A stretch of DNA of 32,000 nucleotides, taken from assembly GCA_030149205.1 (NCBI GenBank), contig JASBSB010000001.1:30001-62000 (forward strand), written 5' to 3'. This document shows positions 15,430 through 29,532 of the stretch, piece by piece (the first letter of the stretch is position 1; every line of letters starts with the position of its first letter). The DNA comes from Candidatus Heimdallarchaeota archaeon. GTDB taxonomy: Archaea; Asgardarchaeota; Heimdallarchaeia; Heimdallarchaeales; Kariarchaeaceae. Position numbers and translations under genes: made by a program. A model generated the notes under the pieces. It was not told where the DNA came from. It was given only the letters and a program-made list of their open reading frames with translations, and did not search any database.

Positions 15430-15759
15430 ATGGCAATGCAAACACCCGGAAGCATCATGAAATTCAACACTTTTTCCCCCGAGGATAAAGCGTATACCAT
15501 CAAGCTTCTGGCTGCTTCTGTTATAGGGATATTATGGGGAGTCTTTTCAGGTGTCTTTTATCTATCATCCAGCTTCGTAAGCGGATGGTTAGGTCTCGGT
15601 GTTTTCCTTTTGCAAGCGTTCCTTTTGGGAGTCTATGTCAAGAGCAAATATAAACTTAACAAAATGTCTCTTATGAAGGCTTTCAGACACTCAATCTTGA
15701 TGTCATTTTTTAGTTTTGTTTTCCTTTGGGTAACTGTGTTTAACTTTTATGTGAATTAA
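15430..15759 (+). CDS. Three-TM EMC6/Rab5ip-like membrane protein (putative partner of an Oxa1-superfamily insertase)
   Basis: About 109 aa with three hydrophobic helices. C-terminal SFFSFVFLWVTVFN resembles the EMC6 terminal helix (GLFTYVLFWTFLYG). Confidence 0.6.
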   Translation: MAMQTPGSIMKFNTFSPEDKAYTIKLLAASVIGILWGVFSGVFYLSSSFVSGWLGLGVFLLQAFLLGVYVKSKYKLNKMSLMKAFRHSILMSFFSFVFLWVTVFNFYVN

Positions 15760-15894: not shown

Positions 15895-16524
15895 CTATAC
15901 AGTGATACGAATTCCATTCAATGTGGTTATTTGAAATGAGTCGCCTGCGTTGGTTACTGAATATGTACCATCTCTATTGTTAGTTACAGTAGAGGTTCCA
16001 GGTGAGACGACTGTGACTGTGGCATCTCCAATTGGCATGGTTACACCGTTTATGACTCTGTAGATTGTGATAGTAGTCCCTACTTTGTTAAAGTTGTATT
16101 CCATAGTAAGATGATAAGTTTGCTTTAATGTATTCTTACTATTGCTCAGTTCCAGAGAAAATACTGAAACAACCAAGTATCCGTTAGCTCTAATTGTCAA
16201 CTGCGTGGGTTGAGCCACCTGAAAGTTTGAGGTAAATCCACGTGTCAAGAAACTGTTACTTAACCTGTTTAGTTGGGCCTGTACTTCAACGTCAAAATTT
16301 GAGGTATTTAATCCCTGAGAGAATCTTGCGAGTTCTATTTTAGATATCTGTTGAACGTTATCGCCCACATTGGACCAAGTTAGTATAAACTCACTGCTTC
16401 CTGCAGTAGGATCAGTGTATTGTGCTCTGTTTAGGTCTAATAGGACTGAGGTTATACCAAGGAGAAATGTTATTGTCAATATAGTTAACAACAAAAATAT
16501 TTGGCTTCTGTTCCGTAGTTTCAT
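15895..16524 (-). CDS. Type IV pilin-like protein (class III signal peptide)
   Basis: MKLRNRS|QIFLLLTILTITFLLG followed by a polar beta-rich domain; TGATG coupling with the upstream pilin. Confidence 0.75.
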   Translation of the reverse strand: MKLRNRSQIFLLLTILTITFLLGITSVLLDLNRAQYTDPTAGSSEFILTWSNVGDNVQQISKIELARFSQGLNTSNFDVEVQAQLNRLSNSFLTRGFTSNFQVAQPTQLTIRANGYLVVSVFSLELSNSKNTLKQTYHLTMEYNFNKVGTTITIYRVINGVTMPIGDATVTVVSPGTSTVTNNRDGTYSVTNAGDSFQITTLNGIRITV

Positions 16525-17018
16525 CAGACCACCCAGCTTGTAATAACGAATTTAAAGGCATCGAAACTTGGGCCATAGACACTTGAATAATACCCCGGTG
16601 AGTAATATTCAAATGATGTTGTTTGCTGGACTGCTATTTGAGGAACGTCTTGATTAGCGATATCTATTAATTGAAAATTTCCCTGACCGTTTGTATCATA
16701 AAATAGCTTTACAGAAAATTCTGTGTTTGGCAGTAGCCCTGCATAAATAGCTGTTACTAGCTGCTGTTCTGTGGCATTGGTGTCCTTAAGAAATGAACCA
16801 TTCAAGTACTGTTGTTTTGCTGCTTCTTCATATTTCGCAAGTAAACCTGATGATTGAAGCTCTTGAGTTACACTTTTTAAAACATCCAAACTTTTGGAGT
16901 TATCAACCTTGGAAGGAGCTGGAAAATTTTGTGCAGCGAACAAGCTGCTTATAAGAATTATCAGAACAGATAATGCAACGATAACTTCTATCAAAAAAAG
17001 TTGGCTTCTTTTATTCAT
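16524..17018 (-). CDS. Type IV pilin-like protein (class III signal peptide)
   Basis: MNKRS|QLFLIEVIVALSVLIILI. ORF is open from 17042; Met at 17018 is the likely start. Confidence 0.78.
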   Translation of the reverse strand: MNKRSQLFLIEVIVALSVLIILISSLFAAQNFPAPSKVDNSKSLDVLKSVTQELQSSGLLAKYEEAAKQQYLNGSFLKDTNATEQQLVTAIYAGLLPNTEFSVKLFYDTNGQGNFQLIDIANQDVPQIAVQQTTSFEYYSPGYYSSVYGPSFDAFKFVITSWVV

Positions 17019-17048
17019 CTTTTTCGCTCTTATTTTTATCATTTTATT

Positions 17049-18191
17049 TCACTCCCATACGGTGACAATTACCACAAATGCAACCTCTCTAATAAGAATG
17101 ATCTTGGTAATAGAGGAACTTGGTACTGGTGGTAATTTCGTTGGTTGAACAACAGGCGCTATTTTACCGTCAAGTGTGGTCGGAAATACATTAACTGCAA
17201 CATATCCCGTATTTGTGCCAGTACTTGAAATTGCCACAAACACAACAATCCCTGCTGGTGGAACTCTAACATTAGAAGCATTATGGAAGTTTGTGGTTGT
17301 AACAATTGAGGCTGAAGAAACGCTAGTGGTGTTAACAGCACCTGGTTGACCAGTATAAAGTACCTCAATAGAATTCAACGTTTCACCTGTGTGTGTTTCC
17401 ATTACAAAGTTTACAGAGCTGGTGGAGGAGTTGAAGTTTTCAAATACATTTGATTTAGCAGGGAGAAAATTTACATTTGTGTTTGCCTTATACTGGTATA
17501 AGTCTACATCCTGTCCAATTCCTTTCACGTTAGCAATGGAGACTACCTGGACAAATCCACTCTGAATTGCTCCTGTCAGTGTAAGAGAATATCCCCCTGT
17601 TGAATTGGTGAGCCCAACACTTGAAACTGTAACTGGAGTTGCCCCTGAGAGTGAAACTCCATACAGTGAAATTGCTGCTTTTGAAATCCCTTGGATTGAA
17701 TTTCTTGTTACCTTGCCTGTAACAATCAGATTGGTCCCAGACACTGTCACTGAGTATATTGTGTTGTTAATCGTTGAAGATATCGAAATTGAGAAAGACT
17801 TATTTGAAGACTCCACATGACCAAGAAGAGAGTTATAATCCATGTAATACTGAGTTAGACTGGAGTTAGATAATCGCCCCACTTTGGTTGGACTTATGGT
17901 ATTTCCATGTAACATTCCAAATTTCCAACTTGTTCCAAGCAAATTGGTTGTTTGGGTTCTTTCCCAATTGGAAGGTGTTCCAGCCTGATTGAAGACAGAG
18001 TTATACACAAGATTGGTTTGCGTGTCACGTTTAATTATGTTAAAACTCACCTGAGTATTTGATATTAAATTACTGGTCAACACCAATATCTGTGTCATAA
18101 CCAAAACAAATACAATCATTGCTAAAGCGAAATCAATTCCCCGAATCTGGGATCTATTTCCTCTGATTATTCTGATCTTCCGTAAATTCAT
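17049..18191 (-). CDS. Large minor pilin/adhesin-like protein (class III signal peptide)
   Basis: ...RGNRS|QIRGIDFALAMIVFVLVM, GTPSNW motif, S/T/N/G-rich Ig-like body with N-glycosylation sequons. Confidence 0.75.
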   Translation of the reverse strand: MNLRKIRIIRGNRSQIRGIDFALAMIVFVLVMTQILVLTSNLISNTQVSFNIIKRDTQTNLVYNSVFNQAGTPSNWERTQTTNLLGTSWKFGMLHGNTISPTKVGRLSNSSLTQYYMDYNSLLGHVESSNKSFSISISSTINNTIYSVTVSGTNLIVTGKVTRNSIQGISKAAISLYGVSLSGATPVTVSSVGLTNSTGGYSLTLTGAIQSGFVQVVSIANVKGIGQDVDLYQYKANTNVNFLPAKSNVFENFNSSTSSVNFVMETHTGETLNSIEVLYTGQPGAVNTTSVSSASIVTTTNFHNASNVRVPPAGIVVFVAISSTGTNTGYVAVNVFPTTLDGKIAPVVQPTKLPPVPSSSITKIILIREVAFVVIVTVWE

Positions 18192-18192
18192 T

Positions 18193-18606
18193 TTAATCTT
18201 TAAGCACTGTTTCCTCTAGTAGAGACTTGATGTCAGATAGAGAAGACTCTAACTTCACCATCTCTAAGCCATTTTGAAATAGGGTTGTCAATCTTGCAAT
18301 TGTTTCCTGGGCTTCTTTCATTCTTTCAGAAGCAAGGGTATCTAATCTTGCGTTGATTTCATCAATTGTATCTTTGGTGACCAATTTGCTTGAGAGTTCA
18401 TCAAGACGTTCTTGAATTGGTCCAAGATCAACAGTGGATGTACCACCACCTCCACTGCTTCCACCATCCTCACTTACTACTCCTGGTTGGATTTTTCCAA
18501 TCTCAGAAATAAGTCTAAGTATTTGGAAACTAATTTGACTGTGCTCTTTTTTCAATGCTTGAATTTCATTTTTGAGAGTGGAGATTTCATCTTCCAGCTT
18601 TGCCAT
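18193..18606 (-). CDS. Soluble coiled-coil protein with a central Gly/Ser linker
   Basis: Heptad pattern LEDEISTLKNEIQALKKE, linker DGGSSGGGGTS, then a second helical region; stop codon is 1 nt from the pilin start. Confidence 0.75.
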   Translation of the reverse strand: MAKLEDEISTLKNEIQALKKEHSQISFQILRLISEIGKIQPGVVSEDGGSSGGGGTSTVDLGPIQERLDELSSKLVTKDTIDEINARLDTLASERMKEAQETIARLTTLFQNGLEMVKLESSLSDIKSLLEETVLKD

Positions 18607-18679
18607 TCTTAATTAAAATTGTTTTAATTAATTAAAATCCTTTCGGAATTATGTCACGTTCTTTGATACCTTTGAATCT

Positions 18680-19684
18680 TTATTTAGCTATTAAGAATTT
18701 ATGAGCTAAGAAAGCAATTAACATTAACACGGATGAATGGATCAATCCTATTTTAAGTTTACCTGATCCCATTTTTCCTGCTGTCAGACCAGAGAAGAAC
18801 CCCTGTGTTAACAAGACATATAGAAATATGGTTCTAAAGGCATGAATTGGAATTGGGATCACTTCTACATTATTGACGGGAATTGCTGTTGCACCGAAGG
18901 TTTCAAAGAATGTGGCAAACAGAATATAGATTACAAAAACAAAAATAAGATAACTCGCATAAACTACCACTATGTAAGGTTGGATTTGGGTTTCTCTTTC
19001 TCTTTTAATATCTAGAATTTCTTGAATGTGCTGTTGTGCTGCGTCAAATATTTGCTCCAAATCTCCACCTGATCGTTCGGCTTCGAGAATCAGGATACTC
19101 GCTTGTTTTGCCAGTGGAGTCCCAATACTCTCCCTGAAAGATACCATAGCATCTCTGAAGGGGACACCCCAAGATACCTTAGCTGCCAATTTCTTTAGTT
19201 CTGGAGTAAGAGGGCCATAATTACGTTTGGCAGCCTCTGCGATTGCTCTGGGCAGATGCATTCCTATCCTTTGACTGTCAGCAATTTCTCTAAGAAGAAA
19301 AGGTAAGTTATCGTCAATAGCTTTTAATCTCCTCTCATTTCTAAAGTAAATAGCAAATGATGGGATGCCTATTAGAATGATAAGTGACATGGCTATCCAG
19401 TCATGGACAGACAGATTTAACGCGTTTGGAATTATACCTTGAGCACCGGTAGGAACGGATACTAAACCAAATATTGGTGATACGGTTTGAGATTTACCTG
19501 TTGAAGGGTTAACATATGTAACTGAAGAGGAAGCGGGAATAATTTTGTAATCATTAAAATACTCCAGAAATCCCACTGCGAGGAATAGAACTGCTAAGAA
19601 TATAGTAACTATCCAGATCAAAGTATCAGAACTGACATCTGTTTTCTTTCTTGAGAGTTTTGGCATGTTTTTATCCTTGTACAT
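18680..19684 (-). CDS. Type II secretion system F family / TadC-like pilus platform protein
   Basis: IDDNLPFLLREIADSQRIG, YGPLTPELKK, EAERSGGDL, FFSGLTAGKM; multiple TMs. ATG 19684 follows GGAGG (ORF open from 19708). Confidence 0.9.
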   Translation of the reverse strand: MYKDKNMPKLSRKKTDVSSDTLIWIVTIFLAVLFLAVGFLEYFNDYKIIPASSSVTYVNPSTGKSQTVSPIFGLVSVPTGAQGIIPNALNLSVHDWIAMSLIILIGIPSFAIYFRNERRLKAIDDNLPFLLREIADSQRIGMHLPRAIAEAAKRNYGPLTPELKKLAAKVSWGVPFRDAMVSFRESIGTPLAKQASILILEAERSGGDLEQIFDAAQQHIQEILDIKRERETQIQPYIVVVYASYLIFVFVIYILFATFFETFGATAIPVNNVEVIPIPIHAFRTIFLYVLLTQGFFSGLTAGKMGSGKLKIGLIHSSVLMLIAFLAHKFLIAK

Positions 19685-19685
19685 T

Positions 19686-20612
19686 TTATTCCTCCGGTTG
19701 TAGTCCATCTACTAGTATAATTATTATCCCTTGTAGCATTGGAATGACTATGAATGCAAGTGCTAATACTATTCCAGAAAGTGCATCATGATTTATAGTC
19801 CCCTGCATTGCTACCATTGCAATCATCACAACAATAAACGTTGGGGTTACAATACACATTACCAAAAACAACTCTGCCATTAACCCAAGACTTTCGATAA
19901 AACCTTTTTCAATTTGTAATTTATCATTCATTAAGGTTTTAGAAGTGTTTTGTAAATATGATTGAAGATCTCCACCACTTGTAAAAGTACTTACTATCCC
20001 TTCAAGAAATGCTGAATATTTGGGTGAGGGAGACCTCTTAGACGCATTTTCTATTGCCCGTATAATATCTTGATTGAAGATTTCAACATCTCTTGCAATA
20101 ATTTTTGCATCTTCCTTTAGATACAGATCCATTTCATCTTGGGCAAGTGAAAGAAAAATTTTGTCAGGTGTCACACCTGCAGAGGCCATTGCAGTCATAT
20201 AACTCGCTGCTGTTGGTAAACTTGCCTCAATTTTTCTCTTACGGGTGTTTACCTTAAGAGAGACATTGAAGATAATAACGGAATATGTCACAAAGGCAGA
20301 TATAATCCCGAAAAGAATCGGAAACACAATAGGAAAGGAGATTTGAGGTGCAGATACGTTGACAAAGAACCATGCAAGTACACCAAATCCAGTGACAAAA
20401 AGCATGGTCAAGATAGATTCAAATATTGTGACTGAGAGGAACATACGCAGGCTCTTTTCAACACCTGCCCTCCTTAATTGTCGTTTTAGGTCTTCAAACC
20501 TATCAATTCTTTTTTCTACAACCCATCCAAAGTATCGATATGCAAATGTGTCAAAAAATCTTGATTTTTTCTCGAAACTCGACAAGGTACTCTTATCTAA
20601 ATTATTTACCAA
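19686..20612 (-). CDS. Type II secretion system F family / TadB/TadC-like pilus platform protein
   Basis: IEASLPTAASYMTAMASAG, RSPSPKYSAFLEGIV...SGGDL; five predicted TMs. Confidence 0.9.
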   Translation of the reverse strand: MVNNLDKSTLSSFEKKSRFFDTFAYRYFGWVVEKRIDRFEDLKRQLRRAGVEKSLRMFLSVTIFESILTMLFVTGFGVLAWFFVNVSAPQISFPIVFPILFGIISAFVTYSVIIFNVSLKVNTRKRKIEASLPTAASYMTAMASAGVTPDKIFLSLAQDEMDLYLKEDAKIIARDVEIFNQDIIRAIENASKRSPSPKYSAFLEGIVSTFTSGGDLQSYLQNTSKTLMNDKLQIEKGFIESLGLMAELFLVMCIVTPTFIVVMIAMVAMQGTINHDALSGIVLALAFIVIPMLQGIIIILVDGLQPEE

Positions 20613-20655
20613 GTATATAATTTTTTATGAAGTTGGGATAGATAAATGACTGTTC

Positions 20656-21600
20656 TTAATAAATCTCTTCAGAGTCATCCCAAATGGTGTTAATTACCTG
20701 TTGAAGGGCTCTCTCGTCATCTTGAACATCTATTATCGGAATATTATGTTCTTTGCATTGATTCACAAGATACTTTTGAATTTCTCTGATATTTTCGAAT
20801 AGTTCAGAGTATTTGGTACCTCTTTTCAAATTTGCCTCACGTTTTCTAAGTCTTGCCATGTGTTCGTCTTCATCATTTAGTGTCAGTGCAATTTGAATTA
20901 TATTTGGGAAGTTGAGTACTTTTTTACTTAATATTCCCGGGAGAATATGGACACCCTCTATAATTAAAACTTGATTATCTTGAATACACCTCAAGATTGC
21001 AGCTTCTATTCCAGTCATTACCAATCTGGATTGCTCTTCAAATGCCAAAATGTTTTTTGTGGTGTTTGGGAGAGGGGGATCAATGATTGTTGGTGCTCCT
21101 GCGTAGGAGGAGGTGTGTAAAGAAGGCATTAAAGTTTCAGAAAAAACAGACCTCATTACCTCTCGAATTGAGTCAGTTCCAATAAGAAGCCTAATTCCCA
21201 AGCGATTTGAAAGGTGTTCAGCCAAAGTTGATTTTCCAATACCTGTGACTCCCCCAATTAGGATTACTAGGGGAGAAATGGGTTCTAATTTTTCTCTTAA
21301 TATACGAATTCTCTGGGCTTGTTTTTTTGAACGTTCATCATACCACAACTGGGTTAAAGTCATTAACTCATTTGTTGTAATGGAACTGATATTTAGTTTT
21401 AATAGCTGACCTGCAATTCCAAGTGAATCTTCATATGCCTGATCATAGGTTAAACCTATTGCAAGCAGTATATTAGCAAGATAACCAACTGAGAACGGTG
21501 ACTTTTTGTTAGATCTACTTATAACCTCAATCTTGTTTATGTCATTAAAGTCAACTGGTTCGGTTCCTTCCTTCTCGTTTGAGGAGATATCACTAGTCAA
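20656..21600 (-). CDS. pgk2: 2-phosphoglycerate kinase family protein (ATP-cone-like N-terminus plus P-loop)
   Basis: PFSVGYLANIL, GGVTGIGKST, TDSIREVMR, LHTSSY, IEGVHILPG. Confidence 0.8.
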   Translation of the reverse strand: MTSDISSNEKEGTEPVDFNDINKIEVISRSNKKSPFSVGYLANILLAIGLTYDQAYEDSLGIAGQLLKLNISSITTNELMTLTQLWYDERSKKQAQRIRILREKLEPISPLVILIGGVTGIGKSTLAEHLSNRLGIRLLIGTDSIREVMRSVFSETLMPSLHTSSYAGAPTIIDPPLPNTTKNILAFEEQSRLVMTGIEAAILRCIQDNQVLIIEGVHILPGILSKKVLNFPNIIQIALTLNDEDEHMARLRKREANLKRGTKYSELFENIREIQKYLVNQCKEHNIPIIDVQDDERALQQVINTIWDDSEEIY

Positions 21601-21648
21601 TTTATAAAATATTTCTCGACAACTTTATAATGTTTCTTCTATACAAAT

Positions 21649-21664
21649 ATTATTACGTAATAAT
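21649..21664. promoter_or_regulatory. Perfect 16-bp palindrome ATTATTACGTAATAAT in the divergent intergenic region; candidate operator
   Basis: Sequence read directly; the operator role is inferred from position only. Confidence 0.4.
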
Positions 21665-21681
21665 CCTAGAGTTGCTTTAAG

Positions 21682-22599
21682 TTGAGTTCGAAAATAATGG
21701 TTCTTGGAAATGGATTTGAATATGCTTTCAGTCGTGGTCTAATTGCCAAGGAATTGAACTCTAAGGGACTGGATTATAATTTAGGATATGAGATAGCAAA
21801 ACAGACCCAAAAGATTCTTCTCAATAGAAAGAACCGTCAAATAACAGAAAAAGAGCTCGATAAACTGATTGAAGACCAAGCTCTTTCCCATCTGAATGAA
21901 GGTATCTCAATTAAAAATTATATGATCATTCGAAGGTGGTTACGAAGTGGGACACCAATTATCATTTTGCTTTCTGGGTCACCTGGTGCAGGAAAACAAC
22001 CATTAGGTAAAAAAATTGCGACTCGCTTGGGAATTTCTCAGGTCATTCCATCAGATATGATTGTCGCTTTACTCAGAAATCTCATATCAGCAAGATTGGC
22101 ACCAGAGCTCCATGCTGAGAGTTACAAGGCTTCAGAACATTTAAAACCTAAATTTGCGGTTAATTACGACCGAGTAATCATAGGGTATGAAGAACATACA
22201 AAGTATGTTGTTGAAGCAATTGAATCCATGATACTTAGAGCATTGAAAGAAGATAATAGCATTGTAATACATGGAGAGCACTTGGCTCCCAATTTGTTTA
22301 AGAAAGAGATATTAAGCCATCCCTTTGTCTTTCATATAACTATTCATCAAAGTGACCCTAAAATTCATCTTAAACAGTTGCTTGAGTCCTTAGATCAAGA
22401 ACAACAGTATGAAACAACAAAAGAGTTTCCACAGATTCGGAAGATCCAGGAGTTTTTGAAAAAGCAAGCTGAAACTCTTGAACTTCCAATATTTTCAACC
22501 CAAAAGGATTCCAATGACCTATTTGACCCTGTTATTGAGTATATAATAGAAACACTTGAGAAGAGATTAAATTCATCGGTCAGTCCAAACTCATCTTAA
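21682..22599 (+). CDS. 2-phosphoglycerate kinase-like paralogue with a degenerate Walker A
   Basis: AFSRGLIAKEL, SGSPGAGKQP, LHAESY, IGYEEH, HGEHLAP; collinear with the neighbouring paralogue. Confidence 0.75.
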   Translation: MSSKIMVLGNGFEYAFSRGLIAKELNSKGLDYNLGYEIAKQTQKILLNRKNRQITEKELDKLIEDQALSHLNEGISIKNYMIIRRWLRSGTPIIILLSGSPGAGKQPLGKKIATRLGISQVIPSDMIVALLRNLISARLAPELHAESYKASEHLKPKFAVNYDRVIIGYEEHTKYVVEAIESMILRALKEDNSIVIHGEHLAPNLFKKEILSHPFVFHITIHQSDPKIHLKQLLESLDQEQQYETTKEFPQIRKIQEFLKKQAETLELPIFSTQKDSNDLFDPVIEYIIETLEKRLNSSVSPNSS

Positions 22600-22605
22600 A
22601 TAATT

Positions 22606-23478
22606 CTAAAGATATCTAAATATTATCGCCAGTGTTATCCCTCCAACTCCTGCAATAAAGGTTGCAAACAGAAATGTTAGAAGATCTTGTTTATCATACT
22701 TTTTGGAGCTAAGTTTATTCAAATGGTTTTCGATTCGACGAATTGACCTATCCAGGTCCCTAAAAAGACCACTTGTGTCAACACTGCTTGGTTTTGGGTT
22801 TGCTCCATCTACTTCCTCAACGAGATCCAACCACCTATTTAAAGCCCCAAAATCTTCAGTAGAGAGGTTTGCCTTATGTGCATTAAGATCATTCCTTATC
22901 AATTCTACTTTTTCTCGAGTTATCTTTGGTGCATAGAATAATGGTTTAGATAGTTCTTGAATCTCTAGTTCAGGAAATTTAGATTTTAGATATACCGCTA
23001 ACCCAAATTCCAATCCATCAATAACCTCATAGTGAATCTTAAGTGCTGAATTGTTTCTAACAACGTAGACACCAAAATCTAAATTATTTAGAGTTAAAGT
23101 TTCCTGATACTTTAATGGATCGATGACAATAGCAATCGCTTCTGGAAACAAATTTTGATAGTTTGATTGGGTGTTAATATCTGTTCCTGACATAAAGGAG
23201 GTTAATCCTGGGTGAGTGTGCCACCACCCAACGATTGTTTTGTTATCAGTTCTGTTGCTCACCTTCATAACTGCATTTACTAGCGCCTGATCTGACATTG
23301 TAACGTGAACAGATGTTCCCTCTTGTTCTCCCACCTCAATTTCATCCACATATAACACGCCTTCATCTAAATGTCCTATTAGAAGACCCGCAGTCTCTTT
23401 CCCAGGGTGAGTCTTATCAAAATGAATCATTTGTGCAACAGCTTTTGCCTTAATTTTAACGAGAGGTGGTGTACTCAT
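22606..23478 (-). CDS. MPN+/JAMM metalloisopeptidase (Rpn11/CSN5-like) with a helical C-terminal region and a C-terminal TM anchor
   Basis: KETAGLLIG, GWWHTHPGLTSFMSGTDINTQ (H-x-H-x7-S-x2-D), AIVIDP; C-terminal LLTFLFATFIAGVGGITLAIIF-RYL. Confidence 0.88.
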   Translation of the reverse strand: MSTPPLVKIKAKAVAQMIHFDKTHPGKETAGLLIGHLDEGVLYVDEIEVGEQEGTSVHVTMSDQALVNAVMKVSNRTDNKTIVGWWHTHPGLTSFMSGTDINTQSNYQNLFPEAIAIVIDPLKYQETLTLNNLDFGVYVVRNNSALKIHYEVIDGLEFGLAVYLKSKFPELEIQELSKPLFYAPKITREKVELIRNDLNAHKANLSTEDFGALNRWLDLVEEVDGANPKPSSVDTSGLFRDLDRSIRRIENHLNKLSSKKYDKQDLLTFLFATFIAGVGGITLAIIFRYL

Positions 23479-23557
23479 CTAACTATTATTTTTCTATAAA
23501 GTAAATAAAAGTCTCTAATATATTTTGCCTAATTTATTAATATTTCATAAAACAGTA

Positions 23558-25105
23558 TCATGATGTTAACCCACGCTTCGCCTTTTCATAAACCTTGTCT
23601 GGGTTTGAGTAATATTCAGCAATCTGGGCAGAGACGTCTCTGAAATGTCTGATTTGTTTTTTGGCAAGCCATCTTAGCACAACCTCCCTTCTTTCAATTT
23701 CATCCCAGCACTCTTGATCACTCATACCTGTGGTGTTTTTGATTTTTTCAATAAGATATGATCTTCCAAAGAAGGAGAAGTTATCCTTGGTTGCGTTCCA
23801 TGAGTACAGCTTATTTGTAAGTAGTTGTTTAGTTACGGGGTCGAGGTCTATTATTTCAGTCACCTCTATAGACCTTCTCGCAAATTTACCTTGGGTTCTT
23901 ACTTTCTTCTGTATGTGAATTAAATCCAGAGATTTGATCATTGCCCTCGGTACGTTCATTGGTGCAGACTCTAGTCTTCCAATAACACCTTGAACACTGT
24001 CACCGTGTATGGTTCCCATCCCTGCATGTCCTGTTGACATTGCCTGGAAAAGAGTATATGCCTCGGCACCACGAATTTCACCCACTATGATGAAGTCAGG
24101 CCTTTGTCTCATTGCAGCTCTAAGTAGATCGAACATTGAGATCTCTCCTCTTTGAGTTCCATCACTGCTTTTGTTTCCGAAACCACCTCTGGAAACTGAT
24201 GGAATCCAGTTTTCCAGCCCAATGTTTAATTCCGCGGTATCTTCAATAGAAACAACTTTCAGATCAGGTTTCAACAGCATAGACAGAGCATTTAGAAATG
24301 ATGTTTTTCCTGCTGCTGTTCCTCCAGCAATTAGCAGACTCATTTGATATTGTATAATGAACCAATAATATGCAGCGATTTTACTGTCAACTGTGTTTGT
24401 TATAATTAGATCTGTTATTGTCCAAGGGTCTGCCCTGAATCTTCTGATTGTGAAGGTCGAGCCTTTTTGGGTCACTTCCCTTCCAAAAGAGAGTTGGAGA
24501 CGAGAACCATCAGGAAGGGACGCATCTAGTAATGGTTGAGCGATAGATACATGTCTCCCAGATCGCTGGGCTAATTTAATTATAAAAGAATCTAATTCTG
24601 TTTCATCAGTAAACATTATGTTAGAGGCAATTGACTCAAAATCACGGTGCCAGATATAAATTGGGACATTTAAACCATCACATGAGATATCTTCTATTAG
24701 ATGATCATGTAGGAGGGGGTCTATGATACCATATCCTATTAAATCTCTTTCAATGTAATACATTAATTTAGCCTGTTGCTCAGCTGTAAGTTTAATCCCA
24801 TACGTTTTGATTGTGTCGGTAACCATTTTTTTCAAATAGTCTTGAGCCTTTCCCTCGTTTGAAAGAACAGTGAAATCCACAGCCAATTCTTCAATTAAAA
24901 CATCTTTAATGAAGTTAAAATATTTTTCCTCAGTTGTATCAAGTTGATCCTCCATAACTTGATAGGTGGTTCTTTTGCTTACAGGGTCAGTCTGTATTAG
25001 TGCATAAGAATATGGTGGTTTCAGGGGATAATTCCCCTGTAAAATTGGCATAGTGCTTTCAACACTTGCCAGATCATCTAGTTTGGGCATCTCAAATTCC
25101 GACAT
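23558..25105 (-). CDS. Type IV pilus/secretion ATPase (VirB11/TadA/ArlI family)
   Basis: Walker A GGTAAGKTS, Asp box IEDTAEL, Walker B IIVGEIRG, His box GHAGMGTIH, IEDISCDG. Confidence 0.95.
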   Translation of the reverse strand: MSEFEMPKLDDLASVESTMPILQGNYPLKPPYSYALIQTDPVSKRTTYQVMEDQLDTTEEKYFNFIKDVLIEELAVDFTVLSNEGKAQDYLKKMVTDTIKTYGIKLTAEQQAKLMYYIERDLIGYGIIDPLLHDHLIEDISCDGLNVPIYIWHRDFESIASNIMFTDETELDSFIIKLAQRSGRHVSIAQPLLDASLPDGSRLQLSFGREVTQKGSTFTIRRFRADPWTITDLIITNTVDSKIAAYYWFIIQYQMSLLIAGGTAAGKTSFLNALSMLLKPDLKVVSIEDTAELNIGLENWIPSVSRGGFGNKSSDGTQRGEISMFDLLRAAMRQRPDFIIVGEIRGAEAYTLFQAMSTGHAGMGTIHGDSVQGVIGRLESAPMNVPRAMIKSLDLIHIQKKVRTQGKFARRSIEVTEIIDLDPVTKQLLTNKLYSWNATKDNFSFFGRSYLIEKIKNTTGMSDQECWDEIERREVVLRWLAKKQIRHFRDVSAQIAEYYSNPDKVYEKAKRGLTS

Positions 25106-25144
25106 TGTTAGGTCACTTATTCTTAATACATATTAGATTTAATC

Positions 25145-25157
25145 ATATAAAACAATT
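25145..25157 (-). promoter_or_regulatory. Putative BRE/TATA promoter (AATTGTTTTATAT) of the pilus ATPase gene
   Basis: TTTTATA box about 40 nt upstream of the ATG; a near-identical motif lies at 29555-29567. Confidence 0.45.
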
Positions 25158-25182
25158 TCTTGAGTTTATACCTTCAAATATA

Positions 25183-26238
25183 CTAGAAAATTTCATCTAA
25201 AGGTTTATTTGATGGCTTAATCATTGCCAGATTTTCAATGGTTTGTTCTTCAAGCAAAAACAGGGCAAATTGAATTTTTTGGTCCCATTCTTCTGTTAAT
25301 CCCTGAGAGGCTTTATCTAGAGCATCCATTAACGCCCATTGTGATATAAAAAATGCTAATGGATAACCACTGGGATAAAGATGTTCGAACTTAGTTTCTG
25401 AGAGTTGAAAGAATTTTTGACTGTAACCAGTTAAAAATTCAGCAATGTTTTTTGCAGTAATTTGAATATCAGAGGTAGATGCAAATTCAATAAAGAGTTC
25501 TTGCCCAAAAAATGTGCCAATATCCTCCATTCTATCAAAATTTCCTGCACTCATGAATTCAGGGTCAATAATCCACATTTTCTCTATTTGTTCATGTTTA
25601 CTAAGATTCACCATGACATTACTTTGATGAAAATCAGAAAATGCGTCACATCCCTCATTTTTCTTGCCTATGTAACGTAGGGCTTTTCCCAAACCTGTTG
25701 ATATTGCAGGTTCGTGACCTGAAGCAGCAAAATTCTTTCCAATTATCCTTGAAAAATTTTTGTAAAGGTCTCTATCCACTGTTTTTAAGGAACCACCGTG
25801 GATTATAGCCAGCAACATTCCAGCCAACATATATTTCTTTGGGACGGGTGGACTTTCATCAAAGTTAACCCCATTGATCCCCTGATAGACCATTATGGGA
25901 GGGTTGTAAGTAGTTGAATAAATGACCTTTGGAATACCAAATTCTGGGTGGGTTAAAAATCTATTCTCTAAAAGCACTGCGTTTTTTAATTCCTTTAATA
26001 CCGATACTTTATCTTCTGCAATTTTAATTGCTATAAACACTGGAAACTGATTCTTTTTTGTCTCTACAGTAACATTTGTTAAATAAACAGTTCCACTGGC
26101 ACCGGTTTTTTCTTTGACTTGTGAAATTTTAATGTTTACAATTTTCGAATTGTCATCGAAGTGAAGGAGAGCTTGCTCCCTGTAATAGAATTTGAATGTG
26201 TCTACCAGTTCAATCAGGAAGTTGTCCTCTATTTGCAT
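25183..26238 (-). CDS. Protein-kinase-like fold phosphotransferase (APH/choline kinase/Bud32-like)
   Basis: Gly loop TGASGTVY, IAIK, KELKN, LLAIIHG, catalytic loop SDFHQSNVM, IIDPE. Confidence 0.75.
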   Translation of the reverse strand: MQIEDNFLIELVDTFKFYYREQALLHFDDNSKIVNIKISQVKEKTGASGTVYLTNVTVETKKNQFPVFIAIKIAEDKVSVLKELKNAVLLENRFLTHPEFGIPKVIYSTTYNPPIMVYQGINGVNFDESPPVPKKYMLAGMLLAIIHGGSLKTVDRDLYKNFSRIIGKNFAASGHEPAISTGLGKALRYIGKKNEGCDAFSDFHQSNVMVNLSKHEQIEKMWIIDPEFMSAGNFDRMEDIGTFFGQELFIEFASTSDIQITAKNIAEFLTGYSQKFFQLSETKFEHLYPSGYPLAFFISQWALMDALDKASQGLTEEWDQKIQFALFLLEEQTIENLAMIKPSNKPLDEIF

Positions 26239-26806: not shown

Positions 26807-28171
26807 ATGAGTATAGAACATATTTTTAGAGCTTACGACATCAGAGGGATCTATCCAACTGATTTAAATTCTGGAATTATGCAAAAAATTGGTTCAGCTT
26901 TTGCCACCTTTTTAAAAAGGAAGGGAATAAAAGCTGTTGCTGTTGGTGGAGATATCCGAGGGACAACAGTTGAACTCAAGAATGCACTGATATTTGGAAT
27001 CCAAAAAGTTGGCTTAAAGGTTCATAGAGTTCAAACCAGTCCACTAGGCCTGGCTTTATTTGAGGCGTTTGATCATAAGTTAGGTGCGTCAGCCTTTGTT
27101 ACCGCATCTCATCTTCCACCAGAGTGGAATGGTGTAAAATTTTACTGGGGAGAAGGGGTTGGGTTTTCACCTGAAGAAAATGATGAGGTTCACACGTTAT
27201 TCTCAGACGAAAAATTTGATTTCTCAGAAAATCTTGGTGAGATAGAAGATGTTGACACTTATGAAAAGTATTTACTCTATTTGAAGTCAAAATTTCATTT
27301 TTCTAAGAGGTTCAACATAGCGGTGGACTGTGGAAACGGAGCAACTGCAGTTGTAATGCCTAATCTCTTTCAAGACCTTGATCTCAAGGTAAATTCGATC
27401 TTTGATGTACCTGATCCAACTTTCCCTAACAGACCCTCAGAGCCAAATGAAAAAACCTTACACTCACTTTCTGAATTTGTGTCAAAGGGAGAATACGACT
27501 TTGGAGCTGGATTTGATGGTGACGGTGATAGGTGTGTTTTTACCGATCAAAATGGAAAAGTCATCCCCTCAGAAAATGCAGGGCTAATAATTGGAAAATA
27601 TCTATTGAATAAATCAACAGGCAATTCAGTCATAATTAATGAAGAATGTTCGAAAATGATTGAAGATGAATTTTTAAAATTAGGTGCTCAAACAAAAAGA
27701 ATTAGGGTAGGACACTCATTTCTTTCTTTAGAAGCCAAAGATACAAAAGCAATTTGGGGGATAGAAGCAAGTGGACACGCTATTGCTCCTGAGATTTTTC
27801 TTTTTGATGATGCTTTGATTTTACCCTTACTGATGGCTAAAGCATTAGAATTTTTTGGGAAAGATTTAGCTACTTTAAACGAATCTATTCCATTTGTCTA
27901 TAAAAAACGTTATGACTTGAAATGTCCAGACGATGTAAAATTCAGGGTTGTCGACGAGGTGAAATCTACCTTTGAAAGAATGGATGGTGAAATTTCTGTT
28001 CTAGACGGAGTTGCACTTAATTTCCCCAAGGGAAGAGTCTTAGTTCGAGTATCTAACACTAGTCCAAAGGTGAGAGTAACTATTGAATCTTCTGAAGAGA
28101 GTGAATATCTACACCTTGAGAGTACTTATCTACCTATTGTAGAACAAATAATTTATACTGTTGGTGAATAG
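26807..28171 (+). CDS. Phosphomannomutase/phosphoglucomutase (alpha-D-phosphohexomutase)
   Basis: IFRAYDIRG, TASHLPPEWNG (phosphoserine loop), FDGDGDR (metal loop), GIEASGH, VRVSNT. Confidence 0.92.
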   Translation: MSIEHIFRAYDIRGIYPTDLNSGIMQKIGSAFATFLKRKGIKAVAVGGDIRGTTVELKNALIFGIQKVGLKVHRVQTSPLGLALFEAFDHKLGASAFVTASHLPPEWNGVKFYWGEGVGFSPEENDEVHTLFSDEKFDFSENLGEIEDVDTYEKYLLYLKSKFHFSKRFNIAVDCGNGATAVVMPNLFQDLDLKVNSIFDVPDPTFPNRPSEPNEKTLHSLSEFVSKGEYDFGAGFDGDGDRCVFTDQNGKVIPSENAGLIIGKYLLNKSTGNSVIINEECSKMIEDEFLKLGAQTKRIRVGHSFLSLEAKDTKAIWGIEASGHAIAPEIFLFDDALILPLLMAKALEFFGKDLATLNESIPFVYKKRYDLKCPDDVKFRVVDEVKSTFERMDGEISVLDGVALNFPKGRVLVRVSNTSPKVRVTIESSEESEYLHLESTYLPIVEQIIYTVGE

Positions 28172-28230: not shown

Positions 28231-29532
28231 TCAAAATATTTGGACAGAATAAGGTAATCCCCATTTACTTTGAAAGATTAACCAGAATGATAGCAATTGG
28301 AATATCAAACTTGTCAATATAGAAATTCCAAAAGCTATCGGATATCTCTGTTGGTTCTTTGATGTTATTTTTGACTGACCAACACCGAGCGTAAATACAA
28401 AAAAGAAGAAACTAAGAAACATCGGAATTGAGACTAGGAATAGAAAGTTTAGAGAAGAGATCTGTCTGGCTGCAAATTCACTGCTATCTGGTGTAAATCC
28501 AACAAAGACTTGATATTGATACCCAGCGATGACTTGGGCAGGTATAAGAACCAACATTGAGACACTACTTATAATCATAGTTGATTTCAAGAATTCTTTG
28601 CTTAAATTACCAGTCACAAGTCCGACGACTAATGGTTGAATCAAAAGCCAACTTAACAGTACACTTAGGTACATCAGACTAACCCCAGTCCAAATTTGAC
28701 CATGACCTACTGAAGCATCAACTGCTTGCTCCGATGAGACACTGATAACCTGAAAGTTCAAAAAATAAAAGAACCCTCTTCCATAACGAATTACTGAGTA
28801 CAGCAGAGTTGCAATTAGTGGAACACTCAATAGAAACCAACCGGGAAGAATCTCTGCATAACCCCCTCTAGTTGGCCTAAAAATAAAATCTTCAATAAAC
28901 CTTAGGAGTTTGTCAACTGTCCCAATTTTCTGTATCAAATAATAAGTAATTAAAGCAGGAACTATTAGCATTGCTGCAATGATGAGTCCAGTAATAACCA
29001 GTGTGACAGGGTTTGCAAGATTAAGCAATAATGGAGACAAAATAAATTGATCTGAGTTTATGAGGATCAAGGGGTAATAAAATGATGAGAATAACATAGC
29101 TAAGAATGGTATGCTAAGTTTAACTAGGTTAGGCTTCTTTTCAACTGTGTTATACCATATCCTTTCATTGACAATATCATCGAGAACTGGTTCAAAATCA
29201 GAGAGGATTTGCCCATCTATGGGTTTGTTTTCATATTTTGTCTGGAAGCTATTAATAATATCATTTAATAGCTCTTGAGCATCATCCTCATCCATTCGTT
29301 TATCAATTGTCAAAACAAAGAGAAGACTCTCTTGTCTTTCCTTAAATATGGTTCGAACTTCCTGCAAATCTAAGTTCTCTATTTTCTCACCTTCTGTCTC
29401 AGTGGTCATAGAATAAATTGCACTGATCAAACCTGCAGTTAAGGATACATCAGTCTCGACATTTTTTTTCCCATATTCTTTTGAAAAGTAAATGGTACCA
29501 TAAGTGGTCATGACAATGAGAGTCTTAATCAT
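28231..29532 (-). CDS. Longin-domain protein fused to an approximately 7-TM membrane domain (possibly Yip1-like)
   Basis: The N-terminal ~125 aa (TLIVMTTYGTIYFSKEY...LTAGLISAIYSM...LLFVLTID...LLNDIINSFQTKY...DFEPVLDDI) follows the longin beta-beta-alpha-beta-beta-beta-alpha-alpha pattern; seven hydrophobic segments follow. Confidence 0.75.
   Translation of the reverse strand: MIKTLIVMTTYGTIYFSKEYGKKNVETDVSLTAGLISAIYSMTTETEGEKIENLDLQEVRTIFKERQESLLFVLTIDKRMDEDDAQELLNDIINSFQTKYENKPIDGQILSDFEPVLDDIVNERIWYNTVEKKPNLVKLSIPFLAMLFSSFYYPLILINSDQFILSPLLLNLANPVTLVITGLIIAAMLIVPALITYYLIQKIGTVDKLLRFIEDFIFRPTRGGYAEILPGWFLLSVPLIATLLYSVIRYGRGFFYFLNFQVISVSSEQAVDASVGHGQIWTGVSLMYLSVLLSWLLIQPLVVGLVTGNLSKEFLKSTMIISSVSMLVLIPAQVIAGYQYQVFVGFTPDSSEFAARQISSLNFLFLVSIPMFLSFFFFVFTLGVGQSKITSKNQQRYPIAFGISILTSLIFQLLSFWLIFQSKWGLPYSVQIF

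Follow-up and report, generated by a model that had tools for sequence, protein, structure and literature searches.

The 32-kb window considered here, i.e. the whole stretch of DNA that was analysed (positions 30001-62000 of contig C4 of genome G000), contains a type IV pilus locus in which genes for a kinase-fold protein, a JAMM isopeptidase and two P-loop kinases are interleaved. Following the delineation of open reading frames (ORFs) and their assignment to Pfam and NCBIfam families, eleven ORFs are listed at positions 15895-26238 of the window, ten on the minus strand and a single one, 2PGKb, on the plus strand, and the gene order put forward in an earlier note on this DNA was recovered in full, with the same coordinates and strands. 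The genome was assembled from a metagenome and amounts to 3.3 Mb in 12 contigs, being 93.5% complete; as related contigs are labelled Candidatus Heimdallarchaeota, the host is a Heimdallarchaeote, i.e. an Asgard archaeon, and the same order includes two closed genomes, namely those of Candidatus (Ca.) Heimdallarchaeum aukensis and Ca. H. endolithica. From the sequence of the window, the earlier note had proposed an Asgard pilus with built-in post-translational control through phosphorylation and ubiquitin-like deconjugation: the pilus is borne out by the conservation of its core across the Heimdallarchaeia, and the built-in control is not, the accessory genes appearing as a separate module, found throughout the order and unlinked to the pilus in most genomes.

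The pilus operon

The motor is encoded at 23558-25105 (minus strand) in the form of a type IV pilus assembly ATPase of 515 aa, which belongs to the PilB/GspE2/ArlI superfamily, exhibits the domain PF00437 (E 1e-37, 129.9 bits for a cut-off of 24.9) along with PF23989 (PilB3_C), and is the only strong PF00437 match of the genome. Its best solved relative is GspE2 from A. fulgidus (2OAP; 420 bits, E 1e-124), FlaI from S. acidocaldarius scoring below at 282 bits, which places it nearer to a non-archaellar enzyme. Orthologues sharing 60-84% identity are present in 40 of the 41 genomes of the order. As a side observation, the orthologous ATPase is split in some relatives by an insert of about 1.6 kb, the whole forming one open frame of 1067-1079 aa (G022:C17:40989-44081 and G093:C66:6438-9557), and a related protein of 1022 aa (P0003) carries the intein splicing domain PF14890.

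The platform protein is split in two genes of the minus strand that overlap by 23 nt, i.e. TadC1 (19686-20612, 308 aa, PF00482 with E 6e-11), which aligns to the first half of the ArlJ/UpsF models and corresponds to the N-terminal half of the platform, and TadC2 (18680-19708, 342 aa, PF00482 with E 1.5e-17), which aligns to the second half of these models and corresponds to the C-terminal half. Each half exhibits one PF00482 domain above the cut-off, and no other T2SSF gene is found in the genome. In most Heimdallarchaeia, the TadC1 gene directly adjoins the ATPase gene. Next to TadC2, the gene cc137 (18193-18606, minus strand) encodes a soluble coiled-coil protein of 137 aa with an invariant VDLGP motif and no Pfam family, which sits between TadC2 and the pilins in all the families examined. 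Searching with its profile (alignment A3) retrieved homologues in 78 of the 301 sampled genomes of the phylum, with representatives in every sampled family of the Heimdallarchaeia as well as in families f9, f15 and f20; in the three largest other families, f11, f14 and f17, the same profile found none in 163 genomes.

Three pilin-like genes complete the operon, all on the minus strand. Their products begin with a short basic stretch, followed by [KN]RSQ and some 20 hydrophobic residues, orthologues keeping the pattern [KR][GAS]Q, and they are predicted on these N-termini to carry a class III signal peptide and to be cleaved accordingly. The large one, pil380 (17049-18191), has a Ser/Thr-rich and beta-rich C-terminal part, and its orthologues keep the N-terminus [KR][GAS]Q-[IV]RG[IV]DF followed by a hydrophobic helix. 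The short one, pil172 (16524-17042), shows an invariant N-terminus [KR][GAS]Q-LF[VIL]IE with a hydrophobic helix (alignment A5). The third one, pil209 (15895-16524), starts with RSQ-IFLLL and the remainder of a hydrophobic helix, overlaps pil172 by 1 nt and has orthologues within the genus and in genome G004. In the window, the three pilins and cc137 are not recognised by Pfam, which returned only noise besides a weak hint of DUF7287 for pil380 (E 0.5); in Ca. Sifarchaeum, the orthologue of pil380 matches DUF7287 at E 2e-4 and the orthologue of pil172 matches DUF7288 above the cut-off. In the AlphaFold2 (AF2) model of pil172 (pLDDT 82), a long N-terminal helix is followed by an alpha/beta head, for which the best VIA-align scores, middling ones with Z of 6.8 at most, were obtained with PAS/Cache-like sensor domains, and Foldseek gave no match in the PDB at E<=0.001. 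The earlier note had reported a short major pilin as missing from the window; pil172 is the best candidate for this role, and a genome-wide regular-expression scan for more prepilins of the [KR][GAS]Q type yielded no convincing extra short pilin. Beside the pilin genes, at 15430-15759 on the plus strand, lies an EMC6-like gene with three transmembrane segments (PF07019 only at E 0.26), and a clear EMC6 gene is found about 2 kb from the pilus operon of Ca. Sifarchaeum (L148:13045-13323); such a neighbourhood could reflect shared ancestral synteny or a link to the membrane insertion of pilins or tail-anchored proteins.

As the earlier note had it, no prepilin peptidase is encoded in the window, the sole Peptidase_A24 gene of the genome (PF01478, G000:C4:386034-386396) being located some 330 kb away on the same contig; its counterpart in the operon of family f20 stands immediately ahead of the ATPase gene. 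The view that the system is not an archaellum is likewise sustained. Compared with the archaellum (ArlI/ArlJ/ArlB with ArlF, G, H and C/D/E or X), the likeness lies in ArlI (NF058587) being the top-scoring NCBIfam model for the ATPase and in the TadC halves aligning to the halves of ArlJ. However, the ArlI score of 404.8 bits stays under the cut-off of 550, and archaellin (PF01917) has no match in the window genome, as far as its 93.5% completeness goes, whereas a control search found PF01917 in four archaeal genomes. In addition, KaiC/ArlH (PF06745) is absent from the window, the four matches of the genome all lying elsewhere (the nearest at C4:85059), and no ArlF/G genes were identified.

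Surveying the pilus core by tblastn on 20-kb neighbourhoods in the four families of the order revealed ATPase, TadC1, TadC2, cc137 and pil380 in all four, usually along with pil172 and pil209. The ATPase gene is directly beside TadC1 in the other families of the Heimdallarchaeia and in three further Asgard families, and cc137 follows TadC2 wherever the retrieved loci had enough flanking sequence, which gives the common order ATPase-TadC1-TadC2-cc137-pilins. On this gene content and order, the locus is a genuine conserved type IV pilus operon of the Heimdallarchaeia and of a few other Asgard lineages, whose distinctive features are a split platform and an undescribed soluble coiled-coil component; it would be the only type IV pilus machine of the window genome and probably has a role in adhesion. 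According to a recent survey (PMC13705601), ordered type IV filament loci are rare in Asgard archaea, and a simple core system is found in a few Heimdallarchaea; regarding cytoplasmic coiled-coil accessories, they are known from one halobacterial subclade (PMC4858521). The Heimdallarchaeia thus carry a compact and conserved operon, which is a concrete candidate for the formation of surface filaments and for adhesion.

The gene content being established here, the course of pilus assembly can be proposed by analogy with characterised families. The A24 peptidase, whose gene lies some 330 kb away, would process the three prepilins, and the PilB/GspE2-type ATPase would then lift the pilins from the membrane into the filament on a platform made up of two half-size TadC proteins, with cc137 as a conserved extra component of the pilus. 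Such a system resembles the non-archaellar pili of euryarchaea, namely those of A. fulgidus (GspE2, 2OAP) and Haloferax volcanii (PilB3/PilC3), in its PilB-type ATPase with PF23989, its T2SSF platform, its class III pilin-like genes downstream and its peptidase encoded elsewhere. It differs from them by a platform split in two genes with one T2SSF domain each, by the presence of cc137 between platform and pilins, and by pilins too divergent for Pfam; on the Heimdallarchaeal side, the comparison is one of gene content.

The accessory genes and their distribution

The first of the four accessory genes, kinfold351 (25183-26238, minus strand), encodes a 351-aa phosphotransferase with a eukaryotic-like kinase fold resembling APH and choline kinases. 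Within this family, the motifs GxxG, AxK, E, DxHQSN and IDP are invariant (alignment A1). The window protein has no match to Pfam APH (PF01636), matches below the threshold being obtained for five of 14 orthologues (best E 2.5e-4), and the family profile retrieved nothing meaningful from the PDB sequences. With the AF2 model (pLDDT 85), the top Foldseek matches (E 1e-9 to 1e-7, TM 0.45-0.56, probability 1.0) were all small-molecule kinases, namely PsiK, macrolide and aminoglycoside phosphotransferases, MTR kinase and choline kinase, with N-acetylhexosamine 1-kinase also among the near kinases. The protein thus shares with APH, choline and MTR kinases a bilobal fold and the conserved Lys, Glu, DxHxxN and D(P)E motifs, but differs from them by a sequence similarity below the Pfam thresholds and by its confinement to the Heimdallarchaeales, apart from one homologue in Ca. 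Sifarchaeum. As modelled, it resembles small-molecule kinases rather than protein kinases, and protein phosphorylation is not indicated. The Sifarchaeum homologue (L114:5046-6173) is found among four NAD-epimerase/dehydratase genes, a PMT_2 glycosyltransferase gene and two GT2 genes, a neighbourhood that hints at a sugar-related substrate.

JAMM290 (22606-23478, minus strand) is a tail-anchored Rpn11-like MPN+ isopeptidase, which matches PF01398 (E 2e-13, 50.7 bits for a cut-off of 22.5) with an intact E...HxHx7Sx2D motif. Fifteen orthologues all keep the residues E28, H87, H89, S97 and D100, and the C-terminal transmembrane segment is conserved as well (alignment A4); both this anchor and a helical extension of about 150 aa are conserved across the order. 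The best solved relatives are the Rpn11-like protein from Caldiarchaeum (6FJV, E 3e-25) and eukaryotic Rpn11 (5e-15). Similarly to Caldiarchaeum CsRpn11 (PMC6043591) and eukaryotic Rpn11/AMSH/CSN5, JAMM290 has an MPN+ domain whose JAMM motif is intact, and genes for ubiquitin and E2-like proteins occur in its genome; unlike CsRpn11 and eukaryotic Rpn11, it bears the helical extension and the C-terminal membrane segment, and unlike CsRpn11 it is paired with an APH-like kinase instead of Ub/E1/E2/E3 genes. It is the only PF01398 match of the window genome and, as the sole Rpn11-like isopeptidase there, is not a pilus-specific paralogue. A complex prediction for the kinase (alignment A1) with the cytosolic residues 1-265 of the JAMM protein (alignment A4) returned a score of 0.01 for a mark of 0.32, which speaks neither for nor against binding.

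The last two accessory genes are paralogues related to 2-phosphoglycerate kinase (2PGK), both aligning over their full length to PRK04220, including the N-terminal region that precedes the P-loop domain. 2PGKa (20656-21600, minus strand) is a P-loop kinase reaching 251 bits for a cut-off of 343, with an intact Walker A motif, GGVTGIGKST, that is invariant in orthologues, and no solved relative was found for it by sequence. Its divergent paralogue 2PGKb (21682-22599, plus strand) reaches 184 bits for the same cut-off and has a degenerate Walker A, which reads GSPGAGKQ in the window and has lost the Lys in most orthologues, e.g. GAPGSYTT or GAEGTGTS; judging from this motif, it is a probable pseudokinase. 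The full-length alignment brings both close to the Methanothermus-type 2-phosphoglycerate kinase, from which they depart by scores below the equivalog cut-off and, for 2PGKb, by the degenerate Walker A. The substrates of the 2PGK family (NCBIfam PRK04220) are small molecules.

At the level of the locus, neighbouring genes of the pilus core either overlap or leave 1-6 nt between them, and the accessory genes are set off by AT-rich spacers of 43-81 nt; TATA-like strings occur in these spacers, which is a weak signal at 36% G+C. A scan covering one genome per species returned 42 loci that encode the 351-aa kinase family. At 32 of these 42 species loci, the kinase gene is directly upstream of the JAMM gene and co-directional with it, and at several the divergent 2PGK-like pair adjoins the two. 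Many kinase-JAMM loci are devoid of pilus genes within about 10 kb; pilus genes are present at four only, three from the genus of the window (g1) and one from genus g5. Full-length orthologues of JAMM290 are encoded in all 41 genomes of the order, mostly on another contig than the pilus ATPase, and in the closed genomes the two genes are about 1.4 Mb apart (1,409,495 vs. 2,805,803 in G015; 1,516,838 vs. 3,038,357 in G020).

Across the genomes surveyed, the accessory genes stand beside pilus genes only in g1 (four genomes including that of the window) and g5 (one genome), which are sister genera in the ATPase tree (support 93/93). Two other genera of the family, g2 and g3, have the ATPase gene adjoining TadC1 without the accessory genes in between, and in genus g4 the latter are located on a 15.6-kb contig without pilus genes. 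Altogether, they are unlinked to pilus genes in families f2, f3, f4, f5, f6, f9 and f20 as well as in genera g2, g3 and g4 of family f1. The block found in g1 and g5 is inverted in different ways, with the kinase gene co-directional with the ATPase gene in the window and divergent from it in the other four genomes. In the window genome, each of the accessory genes occurs only once, which indicates relocated housekeeping orthologues rather than pilus-specific paralogues.

In the Heimdallarchaeaceae, the kinase-JAMM pair is surrounded by Bud32-like, AIR-synthase-like, radical SAM and F420 ligase genes together with three unknown paralogues, none being related to a pilus. These three paralogous genes, which encode proteins of 192-366 aa with a shared C-terminal domain, are positioned about 5-9 kb upstream of the kinase gene at loci L085, L090 and L111; along with a gene for a Glu-rich low-complexity protein, they always precede kinase-JAMM in this family, next to the Bud32-like and AIR-synthase-like genes. 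The kinase-JAMM pair found throughout the order is independent of ubiquitin operon genes.

Origin and meaning of the interleaving

Taken together, the locus is probably an ordinary pilus operon combined with an independent module, the interleaving resulting from a lineage-specific rearrangement and not from a regulatory design. Since the module occurs in the pilus locus in two sister genera only, a single rearrangement is enough to explain it. The kinase, the membrane-anchored JAMM and the active and degenerate 2PGK-like kinases form a single-copy unit, which is present throughout the order and would have a job of its own; as a best guess, this unit would combine a membrane-anchored deubiquitinase serving the ubiquitin system of the cell with small-molecule kinases. 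It would have been shuffled once into the gap between ATPase and TadC1, in the common ancestor of g1 and g5, its relocation being followed by local rearrangements and inversions. The control by phosphorylation proposed in the earlier note loses its footing as the kinase fold and the 2PGK family both point to small-molecule kinases, and the control by deconjugation is not upheld for a JAMM that is the sole Rpn11-like gene and not pilus-specific, even if a gene fusion in Ca. Sifarchaeum, described below, keeps a link between JAMM and pilus in play. Synteny across Asgard genomes, which the note had named as a check, disclosed a linkage of accessory and pilus genes in the sister genera g1 and g5 only, the accessory genes of other relatives being unlinked to the pilus; as far as relatives go, this is the outcome that the note itself had said would speak against its proposal. 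What looked like regulation of a pilus by phosphorylation and deubiquitination is therefore mostly a lineage-specific rearrangement, which calls for caution when functions are deduced from the gene order of one genome.

Several observations weigh against so simple a rearrangement. In the window genome, 43 nt separate 2PGKa from TadC1 downstream of it, and the genes for kinase, ATPase and JAMM all read in one direction, with gaps of 77-79 nt between them; judging from this arrangement, co-transcription of accessory and pilus genes is possible there. Besides, the module has been kept within the locus in the five genomes of g1 and g5 through at least two inversions, and the tail anchor of JAMM290 puts the JAMM at the membrane, which is the site of the pilus machine. 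In addition, the fusion in Ca. Sifarchaeum provides a second and independent association of JAMM with the pilus ATPase among about a dozen family-level lineages, which is hardly due to chance, though it is a singleton.

In Ca. Sifarchaeum subterraneum (JAECRX010000013.1), the orthologous pilus ATPase is encoded by a single ORF of 695 aa (L133:3780-5867, i.e. G048:C292), in an operon comprising a peptidase, a small pilin, the ATPase, TadC1, TadC2, a long coiled-coil protein and three pilins, where the pilins match DUF7266, DUF7287, DUF7288 and DUF7261. The first 165 residues or so of this ORF make up a JAB domain (PF01398, E 1e-16) whose HxHx7Sx2D motif is intact; some 40 residues rich in Pro, Ser and Thr link this domain to the ATPase. 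No other JAMM-ATPase fusion was found among 5.8 billion sequences or 1.84 billion cluster representatives, which represent about 15 billion sequences, and the closest relatives of the Sifarchaeum ATPase are without a JAMM domain. Ten relatives of the ATPase that are extended at the N-terminus or matched in two stretches turned out to contain inteins, duplicated ATPase domains, DnaA or unassigned extensions, and not JAMM. The fused domain shares 38-43% identity with small stand-alone JAMMs versus 33% with the JAMM290 family; being nearer to the former, it indicates that the two associations involve different paralogues. Loss of a stop codon may have given rise to the fusion.

A narrower version of the earlier hypothesis would couple JAMM functionally to the pilus, with the isopeptidase stripping a ubiquitin-like modifier from the ATPase or TadC, for example, and both the arrangement in g1 and g5 and the Sifarchaeum fusion reflecting selection for co-expression. 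Such a coupling is rather unlikely, albeit with several facts to its credit: a catalytically intact JAMM domain is fused in frame to the orthologous ATPase of Sifarchaeum, the JAMM gene is immediately downstream of the ATPase gene in the four g1 genomes and is part of the locus in g5, the protein is brought to the membrane by its conserved tail anchor, and ubiquitin and E2-like proteins are encoded in the genome. Set against this, the JAMM gene is unlinked to pilus genes in most of the genomes that have both and, as the only Rpn11-like gene of its genome, must also serve general functions; in g5, it stands four genes away from the ATPase gene. As for the fused Sifarchaeum JAMM, it is a paralogue different from JAMM290, and the fusion, which could stem from the loss of a stop codon, remains a singleton in the libraries searched. 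The more specific proposal that JAMM is a working partner of the pilus motor in some Asgard archaea, the assembly being switched by removal of a ubiquitin-like modifier, is distinctly doubtful; if true, a prokaryotic surface machine would be under ubiquitin control of the eukaryotic type. Two leads emerge from these associations, i.e. the membrane-anchored Rpn11-like deubiquitinase that is paired throughout the order with an APH-like kinase and the single JAMM-ATPase fusion in Sifarchaeum, and both bear on the use of the ubiquitin system at membranes in Asgard archaea.

The link to the pilus could also be metabolic and not regulatory, in that the module, together with a phosphoglucomutase/phosphomannomutase (PGM/PMM), would make a phosphorylated small molecule, e.g. 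a sugar phosphate, for surface glycans or for the glycosylation of pilins. This is quite improbable. It agrees with a kinase fold whose nearest counterparts are small-molecule kinases, among them N-acetylhexosamine 1-kinase and MTR kinase, with the 2PGK family consisting of small-molecule kinases, and with the Sifarchaeum kinase homologue residing among epimerase/dehydratase, PMT_2 and GT2 genes. It also agrees with the position of the PGM/PMM gene (26807-28171, plus strand of the window), which is near the ATPase gene in families f1 and f4; however, this proximity is seen with or without the module, the PGM-ATPase neighbourhood being devoid of it in f4 and in G004, and in most genomes the module is beside neither PGM nor pilus genes. 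Moreover, no substrate can be deduced, and it is not obvious what a JAMM isopeptidase would do in a pathway of this kind.

A chimeric contig, produced artificially at assembly or binning, would at first sight suit a metagenome assembly in 12 contigs but is effectively refuted, as the gene order is common to three other MAGs of genus g1 from different projects, with the kinase gene reversed there, as contigs of two other metagenome studies with about 98-99% identity bridge the four junctions 2PGKa/2PGKb, 2PGKb/JAMM, JAMM/ATPase and ATPase/kinase, and as the G+C content is even across the region.

Other genes of the window

Further along the window, at 28231-29532 on the minus strand, is a gene whose product exhibits a longin domain at the N-terminus (PF19036, E 3.5e-4) and, beyond it, a hydrophobic region that probably spans the membrane several times.

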